This document shows positions 336 to 33,705 of a stretch of 34,611 bases of DNA, one piece after another (positions within the stretch are counted from its first letter, which is position 1; each line of letters begins with the position of its first letter). The translations under genes and the position numbers were made by a program. Origin of the DNA: a virus. Location: UHGV virus genome UHGV-0165227; one strand, 5' to 3'. The notes beneath the pieces were generated by a model. It saw only the letters and a program-made list of their open reading frames with translations. It searched no databases and was not told the DNA's origin.

Positions 336-962
336 TCAATGAATCCATTCCTCGCCGCGCAGTTTTGCCAGCATTGGCTGAGCGTTCTTTACGACAAAAT
401 TGTTGGTATCAAGATTCTTCATTTCACGAAGAAGTGATTTCTTGGTTTCTTCTGACATGTAGCGAGTCTCATATGCAATATCGTAAATCCTTCCTGAAAG
501 CTCAGAACCAATTTGCTTCATTCCTGGGTAGATGTGTTTGCACATTTGTTGACTCTTCTCCATCCACAATTGTAAGTAGCAGAGATTAACCAGTTCTTCG
601 TCAGTAAACTGTTTTGCAATCGGTGAGCATTCTGCCTGCCGATCCAAAATATCCAGCACCCAGCGGCGGAACTCTTTGGCTACCTGAGTGCGAGCAAACA
701 TCGCGATTAGGTGGGCACCGCGTAGTGAGAAAACACGCACTTTTTTGCGATAATTTCCTGAGGTACTCACTTCGAGTACCTGAGTCATTCCGGCGCTAAA
801 CTCATCGCTATACTTGTTATAAATCATTGTTACTGCACGACTATTTGCGTATTTAAGTGCAGATGCAATATTAGATGATGTAAACCAAACACCATGCATA
901 TCACGGGTGGGCACCAATTCAACTCCGTGGAAGTTATAATCTGATTTTGCTACAATATTCAT
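336..962 (-). CDS. ant: Antirepressor Ant (Bro-N/AntA-type N-terminal domain)
   Basis: Immediately downstream of arc on the same strand; AAGGAAA RBS before ATG at 962; Bro-N-like N-terminal pattern; upstream in-frame part of the track ORF lacks an RBS. Confidence 0.6.
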   Translation of the reverse strand: MNIVAKSDYNFHGVELVPTRDMHGVWFTSSNIASALKYANSRAVTMIYNKYSDEFSAGMTQVLEVSTSGNYRKKVRVFSLRGAHLIAMFARTQVAKEFRRWVLDILDRQAECSPIAKQFTDEELVNLCYLQLWMEKSQQMCKHIYPGMKQIGSELSGRIYDIAYETRYMSEETKKSLLREMKNLDTNNFVVKNAQPMLAKLRGEEWIH

Positions 963-1037
963 GTTAGTTTCCTTGCATACGGTTACTGACATAGAGGCCC
1001 GGTTTGTGTTCACGCACTGCCGGGCTTCACTATTTTT
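948..1037 (+). ncRNA. Candidate sar-like antisense RNA covering the ant ribosome-binding site
   Basis: Extended -10 TGCTACAAT (948-956) inside ant 5' end on the opposite strand; hairpin GCCCGG (997-1002) / CCGGGC (1020-1025) followed by U-rich tract 1026-1037. Confidence 0.35.
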
Positions 1038-1209
1038 ACTGGGCATTAGCTCTTTCCTCTCTCAGGCTTTTAGCCAGTCGCTGCACAATCGCAGAGTTGA
1101 TAGAAATTCCATCCATTTCAGCAACACGTCTAATCTCCTCCTTCATTCGCGCTGGCAAACGAAGCTGGAAACTTTGACTTTTACGACCTGTGTAAAGCAC
1201 ATCTTTCAT
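1036..1209 (-). CDS. arc: Arc-like ribbon-helix-helix repressor
   Basis: GGAGG RBS before ATG at 1209; N-terminal beta-strand plus helices motif typical of Arc/MetJ family; directly upstream of ant. Confidence 0.65.
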   Translation of the reverse strand: MKDVLYTGRKSQSFQLRLPARMKEEIRRVAEMDGISINSAIVQRLAKSLREERANAQ

Positions 1210-21817: not shown

Positions 21818-22181
21818 TATTGGCGTCCTGCATCATGAGAAAGACAATCATGGCGGCGCGGAGGGGATTTTCATGTATAGCTCGCTTAGATTTACAGTAG
21901 GCCACACCGCGTGCACCCCACTCGTCTTCATCGAGATTGATAATGCTAATCCTGTATTTTTCAATAATCGGCCATGCGTCTGCTGGGTTTGCGCATGGGT
22001 TAAAGGATCCGCGCTCAACTTCTACTTCAACTGCGTCTCCGTTTACAATGTCTCCCTCAAATGAGACAAACACCATATCGCCATTCTCACCTTCTTTGTA
22101 ATCCGGTGATCCGTTATGAATGGCTTCGAATACCGCCACGTTAATTTCAAAATCACTTAACTGTGAATAATCCATTGTCAT
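21810..22181 (-). CDS. Hypothetical nin-region protein
   Basis: ATG at 22181 overlaps ninE stop (ATGA); acidic 123-aa protein. Confidence 0.5.
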
Positions 22182-23381: not shown

Positions 23382-25262
23382 TTAATACTCCGTCACGTTT
23401 TCCTGTCGCCACGCCTCGTCATATTCCGATTTCGGCATATTGGCGATGTAGCTATATGGCGATCCTGATTCAAGTTGCAGGAACTGGTGCGATTGCTCGT
23501 CAAGGAACAACGGGACACCACCTTCCCAACCTTCGCCGTTACGTTGTTTTTCAAGCATCAAAACAGATGCCGGAGATGCCAGTAGCTGTTCGTCCTTCTC
23601 TGACATCTTTTCACCACTCTGAACTCTCTGTAACGCTCTCTCGCGAGCCTTGTTACGCCAGATGATGAAAAGGTTGTCTGTCAGGTCTGTTATCGCTCCA
23701 GAGCCTTTTACGTCCATTTTCCCGGTTGGTTTTTCTTCGCTATCTCCTTTTCTGGAGTGAGTAACGAGAATGACGTGGGAGTTTGTTTTGTTTTTGAAGT
23801 CACAAATCGAGTCAACAAATGCTTTCTGCCCGTTATAGTCATCGTCACCTATGCCGCATTTCATCAGGCTGTCGATGATGAATAACTGGATGCCGTATCG
23901 GCGGCGAGCGTAGTCGAATATTTCGATCAGCCTGTCGGCTTTCGCCGTTCCGGTCAGGCCAAACACCCAAAGTCTTTCGTCATAAAATTTAAATGCAGAG
24001 TCAATTTCCAGCACTGGCGGCATCTTGCAGCACGTCGCCTGACGGGTAAGGCGCTTAAGGAGAATACCAGGCTTCAGCTCAAGTGACGCGATGCACGTCT
24101 TCACACCCTGACGCATTGCCTCAAGTGCCATATGCCCGACAACCTCCGTTTTTCCGTGACCGTTCACACCATTGACCAGCGTCAACTCTGCCTCACGGAA
24201 CTGGAATTTATCTGCCAGAGATTCCCACGGTGGATTAAACAGATACTGCTGCTTGCCGTAGAAAGCGTTGATAGTGTCCTGGTAAAACTCTCGCGCACTG
24301 TAGAGTTCTTCAGGATCGAAGTAGGATGCCGTGCCGATGTACTGCCAGATTTCATCCTCGGTAACACCGTTCATCAGGCATTCGTTGATGTCTTTGTACG
24401 GCAGAGTAACAAGACGGCAACGATGTTCACCGAGTCGGCTTGCGATTTCCCTTGCGGCTTCACGACCAACATCATCAACGTCCATCGAGATGAATATTTC
24501 CTCAAACCTGTCGAGGTTGTGATACTCAAACTCAATCCACTGTTGCTTAGCGCCTTTCCCGCCACCAAACGGCACGGATAACGCCGAGATGCCGTATTGC
24601 GCATAGCTCATACAATCAATTTCGCCTTCGCAAAGTACAACCGCCCTCACGCCAGCGTCCAGAGCCTGCCATCCAAACAGACAAGGTTCGCAATCACCTT
24701 CTGCCATAATGACTTTCTTCCCGTCCGGTCGCTCAGTGCTGATTCGCTTGACCTGCAACAACTCACCATCGCGTTTGTACGGAAGCACCAGTGCATCAAG
24801 TTCTCGTTCTCCATTCCACACCTTGCCGCTGACAACCTCGTAGCGCTTTACGACTTCTGGCGATATGCCACGCGATTGCAGGTACTCAAGATGGGATTCT
24901 GTTCTGGTAACGTAGCGGGCGATTTTCTTGCGGTCAGGTCTGGAGAATTTCTTCTCACGTTTGGCATCGAAATGGTGATCGTCATCCTTGATTCCGAGAA
25001 AGGCTTTCGCTTCCTGCATAGCCTGATGCAGGTTAATTCCACGACATGCCATCCACAAATCAAGCATGTCACCGCCGTCTCCCTCAGCGAAATCAGCCCA
25101 TTTTTTCTTGCCGCTAAGGTTGACCTTAAGGCTGTTTCCCTTGTCACCGTTGACGTTACCGGCAACCCACTCATGCCCCTCTTTCTTGCCGTTTGGCAAC
25201 AGGTGCGGAGCCACCCTGTCAACCTGCGCCCAAAGCAGGTCACTGAGTTCACTTGGAGTCAT
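23382..25262 (-). CDS. Bifunctional DNA primase-helicase (TOPRIM + RecA/DnaB-like ATPase)
   Basis: TOPRIM-like VVLCEGEIDCMS; Walker A GVNGHGKT and Walker B IIDSL in C-terminal half. Confidence 0.8.
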   Translation of the reverse strand: MTPSELSDLLWAQVDRVAPHLLPNGKKEGHEWVAGNVNGDKGNSLKVNLSGKKKWADFAEGDGGDMLDLWMACRGINLHQAMQEAKAFLGIKDDDHHFDAKREKKFSRPDRKKIARYVTRTESHLEYLQSRGISPEVVKRYEVVSGKVWNGERELDALVLPYKRDGELLQVKRISTERPDGKKVIMAEGDCEPCLFGWQALDAGVRAVVLCEGEIDCMSYAQYGISALSVPFGGGKGAKQQWIEFEYHNLDRFEEIFISMDVDDVGREAAREIASRLGEHRCRLVTLPYKDINECLMNGVTEDEIWQYIGTASYFDPEELYSAREFYQDTINAFYGKQQYLFNPPWESLADKFQFREAELTLVNGVNGHGKTEVVGHMALEAMRQGVKTCIASLELKPGILLKRLTRQATCCKMPPVLEIDSAFKFYDERLWVFGLTGTAKADRLIEIFDYARRRYGIQLFIIDSLMKCGIGDDDYNGQKAFVDSICDFKNKTNSHVILVTHSRKGDSEEKPTGKMDVKGSGAITDLTDNLFIIWRNKARERALQRVQSGEKMSEKDEQLLASPASVLMLEKQRNGEGWEGGVPLFLDEQSHQFLQLESGSPYSYIANMPKSEYDEAWRQENVTEY

Positions 25263-25369
25263 GATTCCCTCAGATTGAGATTTTTAAACCAGAAATCGAC
25301 AAACGAAATACTTAACCAGCCGTGGTTATAACCAGCGACCAGTAGCGATTTGATTTTTGATTTCATGGT

Positions 25370-26230
25370 TCACCTGTCGAAAAACACGTAGCCAGTTTTC
25401 GATACGGTGATTGCGGATGATGGTTTGGATTGTGGTTGAATAGTTTCTGGCTTCTCGTCGTTCCAGCGCTGACCGTTCAGGTAGCTCGATGGTAACAACC
25501 TGTCGAATCCGAACTGCTTACCATTCCTGCATGCGATGTCTTCTGCTAGCATCGTGGCAAACTCGCTTGCCGTACCCCTGGTAGTTTTACGCCATTCCCT
25601 GAACTGTGTTCTGAATGCCGAAGCTGCGTTTTTCTTCCCGGCTTTCCGCATGCCTGCACACCAGAATATTTCCTCGAATGCCTTGTCGGTTTCTTCGTGA
25701 CGGTCAGGTGATTTTTCACACTCCGTCCGAACACTTTCGGACATAGTGTTTTTATTATTTCTTTTTTCTTTTGTAATAGTTTCTTTTGTGTGTCCCTGTT
25801 TTGGTGACAGCGCTGTCACCGTTTTGGTGACACTTTTTGTCACCAATGCAGTGACATTATCACCAGAGTAGTGACACCCTTCGATTTGCCATTCCTCGAT
25901 GTTCTTGTTAGGCCCGATTTGCTGGCCTTCGCGAAGGATAACCTTCATCGCGATAAGCTCATTCTTGGCCTTGTTTACCTTCTGTCTTGGCAGCCTGGTA
26001 ATTTGAGCTAACTGACTATCAGAGATGCGATCCATCTTTTTACCGTAGCCGTATGTTTTACGGCATATGGCGTGGGCAACCTTGCTCTGATTTTTCGTTA
26101 AATCTGCGCCGATAAGCTCTTCATACAGGGCATTTGCAAGACGGGTATAACCATCTTCAACTTCTGCCACACGACGCTCCACAGGCCGTTGTGAAGGCCT
26201 TAAATGTGTTACGGTTGCAAGATTACTCAT
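25370..26230 (-). CDS. Replication initiator, lambda O-like N-terminal domain
   Basis: GADLTK...RKTYG...MDRISDSQL...GPNKNI pattern as lambda O N-terminus; iterons inside gene. Confidence 0.7.
25749..25880. other. Candidate replication origin: GTGACA-type iterons (25797-25880) plus AT-rich tract (25749-25796) inside the O-like gene
   Basis: Perfect 18-bp palindrome GGTGACAGCGCTGTCACC (25803-25820) and at least four further GGTGACA/TGTCACC half-sites, flanked by a T/A-rich stretch. Confidence 0.55.
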
Positions 26231-26403: not shown

Positions 26404-26685
26404 TCAGGCCTCGAAGAATTCGCCGTTCTTCGGGGCTTTTTCTTTTGTCAGGTAATCGGCAAGCCGCTTAGTCAATTCAGCCATTTCATCGTCTTCGATT
26501 CCGTATTCCAGAACAGCAAGCATCATGCTTACCTGCGAGAAGAAACCATTCTTCCATCGGCTTACCTGATATTCAGGAACCCCCATTGCTCGAGCGAATG
26601 TCTTCTGCCCCATCAGTGCCAGTTTGTTCAGCAAGGCCGACTCGATGCGAGCCGCTTTCTTGCTTTTAGTTGCAATAGTACCCAT
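26404..26685 (-). CDS. cII: CII-like transcriptional activator
   Basis: [11 protein letters not shown]...SRWK...MLLAVLE pattern as lambda CII; position downstream of cro/nutR. Confidence 0.8.
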
Positions 26686-26801: not shown

Positions 26802-28154
<1,353 letters not shown>

Positions 28155-33057: not shown

Positions 33058-33705
33058 ATGAATTGCAAATCAATGACCAGAAAATATGCCATCATGATCG
33101 ATGCTGGTTTTTTGCGTGCAAAATTAGGCACAAAAGATAAGCCAATCGATGCGGAAGTAATCAAAGTATTTGTAGAAAAACTAACAAAAAGGCCTGAACT
33201 AGAAGGCATGATTTTGCACCGTGTTTATTATTACGATGCAGAGCCGCTTACCGGAATACAGACGCATCCGATTAGTGGAGAGAAAATTGACTTCTCTGAA
33301 ACAGAAGTTTCTAAAAGAAATAAAGCCATGCTTGATGAGTTGAAAAGAACTCCTTTTTTTGCAGTAAGACTTGGAGAGACAAACTTTCGAGGATGGAAGG
33401 TTGACCCATGGGCATTAAAGAGCAGTGACTCTAAAACTTCTTCCATTAATGCCTACAATGTTAAGCCTAATGTTCAGCAGAAAGGCGTTGATATGCGTAT
33501 TGCGTTAGATATGTCATCAATGTCATTAAAAAAACAGGCAGATATATATGCTTTGGTGACTGGTGATTCAGATTTTGTTCCAATTATAAAATTTGCCAGG
33601 AAAGAAGGCCGACAGATTTTTCTATACACACTGGGACATAGTGTCAAGCAGACGATGTATGAACATTCCGATTTGTTAGTGCCAGATACCATGGATAAAT
33701 TGTGA
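33058..33705 (+). CDS. NYN-domain (PIN-like) predicted ribonuclease
   Basis: NYN signatures: N-terminal YAIMIDAGFL strand and GVDMRIALDM...VTGDSDFVPII; start uncertain (33058 or 33073), no clear SD. Confidence 0.6.
   Translation: MNCKSMTRKYAIMIDAGFLRAKLGTKDKPIDAEVIKVFVEKLTKRPELEGMILHRVYYYDAEPLTGIQTHPISGEKIDFSETEVSKRNKAMLDELKRTPFFAVRLGETNFRGWKVDPWALKSSDSKTSSINAYNVKPNVQQKGVDMRIALDMSSMSLKKQADIYALVTGDSDFVPIIKFARKEGRQIFLYTLGHSVKQTMYEHSDLLVPDTMDKL

Follow-up and report, generated by a model that had tools for sequence, protein, structure and literature searches.

Replication origins of the lambdoid phages sit midway along gene O and are built from iterons and an adjoining AT-rich region, with the O protein binding as dimers; in phage lambda, a pair of iterons along with this AT-rich stretch is enough for unwinding, and the AT-rich segment of origins of this type has itself been described (PMC7466680; PMC3349717). 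Each O-like protein has its own iterons, as made explicit for phages lambda, P22, and L (PMC8022706). In the lambda record (NC_001416), four O-binding iterons are annotated at 39034, 39054, 39078, and 39101, inside gene O; besides these iterons (ITN1-4), that gene contains a high-AT region of 38 bp and a palindrome. Annotated origins of the same kind include those of phages P22, where the GenBank record places a rep_origin in gene 18, and ES18, where the depositors annotated a rep_origin 'similar to lambda ori' in the corresponding part of gene 59.

Here we analyze a stretch of 34,611 nucleotides of viral DNA (UHGV-0165227; hereafter, the window), which is a mosaic P22/Sf6/HK620-like lambdoid genome. 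In its immunity and replication region, the minus strand carries, in this order, cro, cII, orf48 (DUF2740), O, a primase-helicase gene, and ninB, and the other strand carries the repressor gene, N, an Erf/Rad52-like gene, and the SSB gene. The segment 25718-25876 of the window, within the linker-coding part of the initiator gene, is very probably the theta-mode replication origin of this P22/Sf6-like phage. Its architecture follows that of lambda closely, with iterons of a different type and with a different helicase gene downstream.

An array of four iterons inside the initiator gene

The O-like gene (Table 1) matches the Phage_rep_O family with E = 1.2e-37 and 128.8 bits, against a gathering cutoff of 28.7, over residues 20-114 of the product. 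The gene product was also aligned to O from lambda, ES18, and PhiR12_1. A preliminary description of this DNA had placed an iteron-type origin within this gene, and the repeats indeed fall inside the Phage_rep_O reading frame, where they encode approximately residues 119-147, between the N-terminal and C-terminal domains.

A repeat finder and a pattern search together delineate the repeated unit as a 19-bp dyad-symmetric sequence, TGTCACC-N5-GGTGACA, present in four consecutive copies. With up to 3 mismatches allowed, the pattern has 6 matches in the window against 1.27 expected, a number reached by none of 100 shuffled sequences; the matches at 25142 and 30265, each with 3 mismatches, are at the chance level. 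The clustering of GTGACA/TGTCACC half-sites that had been noticed previously is also evident when only the cores are counted: six GTGAC/GTCAC cores are found in the 96 nt from 25785 to 25880, against 0.16 expected (Poisson P = 2e-8), and any other 96-nt stretch of the window contains at most two.

The same description had included in the origin a perfect 18-bp palindrome. The palindrome is there, with fully complementary arms, and is the only one of its kind in the window, against 0.13 expected by chance. It is not a binding unit, however. When the half-sites are read in the register of the palindrome (GGTGACA-spacer-TGTCACC), the spacers are 4, 5, and 1 bp, whereas the gap between half-sites is a constant 5 bp in the iteron register. 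Because the spacers are constant only in the iteron register, the palindrome is to be regarded as the junction between iterons 4 and 3; it joins one iteron's right half to the left half of the next across a 4-bp spacer (GCGC). We compared 107 distinct relatives of the TGTCACC class, with N-domain nucleotide identity to the window down to 67%, and in these sequences the center of the palindrome ranks with the most variable positions of the region: columns 67 and 69 of the alignment are conserved at 55% and 51%, respectively, and the majority sequence is GGGT, not GCGC. Given the variable center and the inconsistent spacing, the palindrome was rejected as a functional unit.

The half-site of iteron 4 that is nearest to the AT-rich run is off-consensus and lies in a stretch common to lambda and ES18. 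Per-column conservation of CAAAACAGGGACACACAAAAGA is 93-100% among the 107 relatives, and this stretch aligns with the junction of iteron 4 and the AT-rich region in lambda. Because this half-site is both off-consensus and shared with lambda, the border between exchangeable modules seems to cross the AT-proximal iteron.

Separately, we noted that throughout the TGTCACC class the outer half-site of iteron 4 is fixed as AGGGACA, within a stretch of approximately 22 bp common to lambda. An off-consensus outer half-site in the AT-proximal iteron was also observed in lambda (locus L004), in P22 (L235), and, less clearly, in HK97 (L236); the position equivalent to iteron 4 in ES18 (L001) was examined alongside these.

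Table 1. Features of the candidate origin and of the adjoining replication genes (positions in the window)
Feature	Position	Strand	Description
O-like replication initiator gene	25370-26230	minus	286 aa; Pfam Phage_rep_O (PF04492)
N-terminal DNA-binding domain, coding part	~25880-26230	minus	
Origin-bearing linker, coding part	~25750-25880	minus	
C-terminal domain, coding part	~25370-25750	minus	
Predicted recognition helix (H3), codons	25949-25993	minus	residues 80-94; winged-helix model
Iteron 1 (first in transcription direction)	25858-25876		TATCACCAGAGTAGTGACA (plus strand); 2 mismatches; aligns with lambda iteron 1
Iteron 2	25838-25856		TGTCACCAATGCAGTGACA; 1 mismatch; aligns with lambda iteron 2
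Iteron 3	25814-25832		TGTCACCGTTTTGGTGACA; perfect dyad, 0 mismatches; aligns with lambda iteron 3
Iteron 4 (adjoining the AT-rich run)	25791-25809		TGTCCCTGTTTTGGTGACA; 2 mismatches
Perfect palindrome	25803-25820		GGTGACAGCGCTGTCACC; 9-nt arms, 100% complementary
AT-rich stretch (presumed DNA-unwinding element)	25749-25790		GC 0.17; T-rich plus strand, A-rich coding strand
Inverted repeat	25718-25749		14-nt arms, 86% complementary, 4 nt between; starts 41 nt past iteron 4
Primase-helicase gene	23382-25262	minus	626 aa; Toprim and DnaB-like C-terminal domain; in place of lambda P

The AT-rich stretch and the inverted repeat that follows it

The repeats had also been described as immediately followed, in the direction of transcription, by a T/A-rich stretch. 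Both the composition and the order are correct: the AT-rich run comes after the repeats in the direction of transcription because the initiator gene is on the minus strand, and its AT content is the highest of any 42-mer in the window. All nine 42-nt windows in the 34.6 kb with a GC content this low fall in this region, and at 25749-25790 T accounts for 71% of the plus strand. The sequence past the iterons, CAAAACAGGG..ACACAAAAGA.ACTATTACAAAAGAAAAAAG, is shared with lambda almost base for base and, given this near identity, the AT-rich run is homologous to that of lambda, beyond analogy.

The inverted repeat past the AT-rich run has a DNA fold of -11.9 kcal/mol (z = -7.4), and the equivalent sequence in ES18 is nearly identical to that of the window. 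Lambda also has an inverted repeat, 43 nt past its iteron 4, which differs from that of the window in having 12-nt arms and another sequence. An inverted repeat past the AT-rich region seems to be a conserved architectural feature of these origins, with a sequence that would be specific to the module.

In the course of this comparison, we observed that, where O has a DnaB-type helicase as its partner, the origin carries a palindrome composed of a C-run and a G-run directly past the AT-rich region, as in P22 with CCCCCTAAAGGGGG. Such palindromes were found in loci L005 (2441-2468), L235 (about 1005-1030), L236 (about 1000-1025), and L008; the inverted repeats that lambda and the window each have at this spot are unrelated.

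Iteron type is inherited with the N-terminal domain of the initiator

No PDB entry homologous to the initiator was found by sequence search. A single-sequence AlphaFold model of the N-domain was unusable (pLDDT 45) and was replaced by an AF2 model built from a 33-sequence alignment, with a moderate mean pLDDT of 70, 70-92 in the core, and 85-92 for residues 80-94. In this model, helices at residues 46-59, 71-78, and 82-94 are followed by a beta hairpin (wing) at residues 98-107. The top Foldseek matches in the PDB are all winged-helix DNA binders (CRP, MarR), with E about 0.01 and none at or below 0.001; these weak matches agree with the fold but lack significance. From the model, the N-domain is predicted to be a winged helix, with residues 80-94 as the recognition helix.

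The block of residues that defines the iteron class maps to the start of helix 3 of this model. Across 43 distinct protein segments of the TGTCACC class, this block of 13 residues shows little or no variation while its flanks differ, and in every other iteron class the block is a different one. The iteron type tracks the predicted recognition-helix block without exception in 233 loci, that is, O-like genes gathered from three IMG/VR scans and from phage records, which are related by descent, so that the counts do not represent independent events. All 211 genes with the block LPRQKVN(K/T)AK contain GTCAC/GTGAC iterons, at 6-7.5 cores per 100 nt. The block ISR[SP]KA[NC]IAK goes with GTTAC/GTTCC iterons in Erwinia and Citrobacter phages, LPVKRCNEAK with TCCCT/AGGGA iterons in lambda and ES18, IHHTHVC[KA]AK with TTAGCC..GGCTAA iterons in HK97 and Klebsiella phage RCIP0114, and MAPTKCSTAK with TTTACC..GGTAAA iterons in P22. 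The N-domain of the window is encoded in 368 IMG/VR stretches; the scan seeded with this domain returned only copies with 99-100% identity, which are uninformative for conservation, and the required diversity came from scans seeded with the N-domains of Proteus and Erwinia phages.

Two natural recombinants separate the parts of the origin. In PhiR12_1, an N-domain that is 100% identical to that of the window, along with identical iterons, is joined to the C-terminal half of lambda O and to gene P. In gene 59 of ES18, conversely, the C-terminal half, the AT-rich run, and the palindrome that follows it are 94% identical to window positions 25300-25803, and the downstream primase-helicase is the same as in the window, but the N-domain is that of lambda and the iterons are of the lambda type, TCCCTC..GAGGGA. 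The joint between ES18 and the window lies within the iteron nearest to the AT-rich run. From these reciprocal swaps, it follows that the iterons travel with the N-domain, whereas both the helicase partner and the palindrome past the AT-rich run are tied to the C-domain.

The C-terminal domain and the helicase partner

The product of the gene that takes the place of lambda P (Table 1) matches the Pfam families Toprim_2 (3e-12, above the cutoff) and AAA_25 (2e-6, just above the cutoff), along with a DnaB_C match (3e-5, 23.8 bits) that is below the 27-bit cutoff. The ES18 counterpart, gp61, is annotated as 'putative primase/helicase; similar to phage T7 gene 4'.

Clustering of the C-terminal domains of the O proteins yielded six classes. 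Among the loci where the downstream gene is visible, the ES18-type C-domain is followed by a Toprim and DnaB-like primase-helicase in 79 of 79, the P22/HK97-type C-domain by a DnaB-like helicase in 61 of 61, and the lambda-type C-domain by P in 59 of 59. In none of its loci (L009-L088, 79/79) does the ES18-type C-domain precede P or a plain DnaB-like gene. The TGTCACC module was found with four of the six C-domain classes. This gene order suggests that a phage-encoded primase-helicase serves the lambda-type origin, and from the gene linkage we infer that the C-domain of the initiator may recruit this enzyme.

A model of initiation and the alternatives

By homology to lambda, initiation at this locus would proceed as follows. 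Dimers of the N-terminal winged-helix domain would each bind one 19-bp iteron, the four sites together giving rise to an 'O-some'; the adjoining 42-bp AT-rich stretch would be destabilized and open; and the C-domain of the initiator would bring in the phage's own T7-gp4-like primase-helicase, instead of lambda P and the host DnaB. Binding of the repeats by the initiator and the origin function of the segment are both inferred here; for the binding, the winged-helix model and the covariation between helix block and iteron type point in the same direction.

Several other explanations of the repeats were weighed against a replication origin. The initiator might bind the repeats chiefly for control, that is, titration, handcuffing, or exclusion of related phages, with initiation taking place elsewhere, an explanation that we consider very improbable. 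Lambda replication is indeed inhibited by lambda iterons carried on plasmids, with proposals that O is titrated or handcuffed (PMC3349717). However, the iterons in the window adjoin its most AT-rich stretch, which is homologous to the unwinding region of lambda; no second iteron cluster was found in the 34.6 kb by either pattern search or core counts; and the same array is the origin in lambda, so that any control role would be additional to that of an origin.

It is highly improbable, furthermore, that the repeats merely reflect a repetitive peptide linker selected at the protein level, with no role as DNA sites, even though the half-sites GTC-ACN and GTG-ACA both encode Val-Thr and the protein repeat is VT-rich. 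Among the 107 relatives, all 11 fourfold-degenerate sites of the N-domain vary, with a mean diversity of 0.50, whereas 9 of 11 such sites in the segment that comprises the iterons and the junction are at least 99% conserved; the fourfold positions in the Val and Thr codons of the half-sites are fixed, and the variation is concentrated in the N5 centers and in the spacers between iterons. Moreover, some of the half-sites are read in different frames, with TGT-CAC encoding Cys-His and CTG-TCA-CC encoding Leu-Ser-Pro; the dyad symmetry and the fixed 5-bp gap have no explanation at the protein level; and the other iteron classes keep the DNA geometry despite quite different linker peptides. Judged by the pattern of substitutions, the half-sites show selection at the DNA level. 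For the iterons of phage P27, the equivalent experiment, synonymous recoding of the sites, succeeded, with replication lost and the protein unchanged (PMC7466680).

That the palindrome at 25803-25820 is a protein-binding site of its own, a cruciform, or a terminator, distinct from the iterons, is barely credible: although no other perfect 18-bp palindrome exists in the window and, together with the following T-run, this one scored as terminator-like on the plus strand in a consensus scan, its center is unconserved, with the GGGT of most relatives breaking the perfect symmetry, the equivalent junctions of the other iterons have spacers of 1 and 5 bp, the plus strand is antisense to two long genes with no upstream plus-strand gene to terminate, and the transcribed strand lacks the T-run. 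The terminator-like matches in the iteron array were accordingly rejected as lying on the antisense strand, a by-product of the dyads and the T-run. An origin built on four dyad iterons, with the palindrome as the junction of two of them, remains the reading that we adopt.

Genomic context and occurrence of the probable origin

Several features elsewhere in the window were recorded along the way. A 14-pair hairpin followed by a T-run, on the plus strand at 26406-26438, runs antisense to cII (26404-26685, minus strand) at the 3' end of that gene, in the position and orientation of the terminator of the lambda oop antisense RNA; no Rfam family matched this hairpin, and a search of the whole window against Rfam gave no match. 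The only other perfect palindrome of at least 14 bp in the window is a 16-bp sequence, TTGGTTCTAGAACCAA, at 1237-1252, between an antirepressor-like ORF (336-1046, minus strand) and the ORF at 1933-2298. Directly past the repressor gene, an ORF on the plus strand (27678-28154) encodes a 158-aa protein whose N-terminus resembles a signal peptide and for which Pfam gave no match. This ORF, which occupies the place of lambda rexAB, is possibly an accessory gene expressed in lysogeny. Past the Erf/Rad52-like and SSB genes of the early-left region, the plus strand encodes a 215-aa protein with an NYN (predicted RNase) domain (33058-33705).

The origin sequence itself is widespread. Phages Sf101, mEp043, SEN22, vB_EcoP-720R6, and those of the PhiR12 series have DNA that is 98.8-100% identical across it, and of 5426 complete E. 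coli genomes, 181 (about 3%) contain it. The group is also represented in phages of Shigella, Salmonella, and Proteus, and proteins with a homologous N-domain are on record from Cronobacter, Serratia, Yersinia, and Klebsiella. The phage records with an identical origin that we examined contain no origin or iteron annotation, the Sf101 genome paper does not mention the origin, and a text search of the literature for TGTCACC together with iteron found no description of TGTCACC-type iterons. Hence this iteron type seems to be undescribed so far. To a broader proposal, we give an even chance: the TGTCACC-N5-GGTGACA iterons and the N-domain with its helix would make up an undescribed origin-specificity group, inherited as one cassette, not cross-reacting with others, and combined with at least four different C-domains for helicase recruitment, with a T7-gp4-like partner in the present case.

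Identification of the array enables correct origin annotation in a widespread group of enterobacterial prophages. The swaps provide a clean natural case in which a DNA-binding domain and its sites are inherited as a unit while the helicase-recruiting half is exchanged. The pair of initiator and origin, which is probably independent of the others, could be added to those available for lambdoid plasmid vectors and would be useful for predicting replication interference between co-resident prophages. If the proposed partnership is correct, a self-contained primase-helicase would free a lambda-type origin from the host DnaB, DnaC, and DnaG. No concept is changed by these findings, given that O-like genes with iterons of their own are textbook knowledge.

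Comparison with known origins

Plasmid iterons of the RepA, RepE, pi, and TrfA type are direct repeats that bind initiator monomers and are located outside the rep gene, usually beside DnaA boxes. The locus described here resembles these origins in having repeated initiator sites next to an AT-rich unwinding element and an initiator of the winged-helix type (here predicted), but each of its iterons is a dyad and the array is inside the gene. TTATNCACA occurs once in the window, at 22162, a frequency at the chance level, and no match to the DnaA-box consensus lies within 3.5 kb of the iterons. A plasmid-type origin with a DnaA box was rejected on these grounds, namely, dyads inside the gene and no DnaA box nearby.

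The origins in P22 gene 18 and HK97 gene O both contain four dyad iterons of approximately 19-20 bp (TTTACC..GGTAAA in P22 and TTAGCC..GGCTAA in HK97), followed by ACACAAAAGA with AT-rich DNA and then by a palindrome. Their N-domains are 36-44% identical to that of the window, and they differ from it in having a DnaB-type helicase as the partner of the C-domain.

In the direction of transcription, the iterons of the window start at 25876, 25856, 25832, and 25809, that is, with spacings of 20, 24, and 23 bp; the spacings in lambda are the same, and the two arrays align iteron for iteron. The preliminary description had spoken of the lambda ori arrangement with a different iteron sequence, and the one-to-one alignment of four equally spaced iterons, along with the homologous AT-rich run, bears this out. 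In both phages, the array occupies the linker-coding middle of a Phage_rep_O gene and comprises four iterons of 18-19 bp, in each of which an A-rich center is flanked by inverted half-sites. The differences are in the half-sites, TCCCTC/GAGGGA in lambda against TGTCACC/GGTGACA in the window; in the N-domains, which are approximately 49% identical over a 100-aa segment (residues 57-156) and have different recognition-helix blocks; and in the C-domains, which are unrelated, with P as the partner in lambda against the primase-helicase in the window. The following sequence traits of ori-lambda are found here: about four dyad iterons of 18-20 bp at 20-24-bp spacing; an AT-rich stretch of approximately 40 bp directly past the last of them; a location between the N- and C-domains of an O-type initiator; an iteron type that is inherited with the N-domain, as seen in the swaps and in the 233 loci; and constraint on the iterons beyond the needs of the protein, as seen at the fourfold sites of the 107 relatives. 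The locus is an ordinary member of the textbook class of lambda-type origins.
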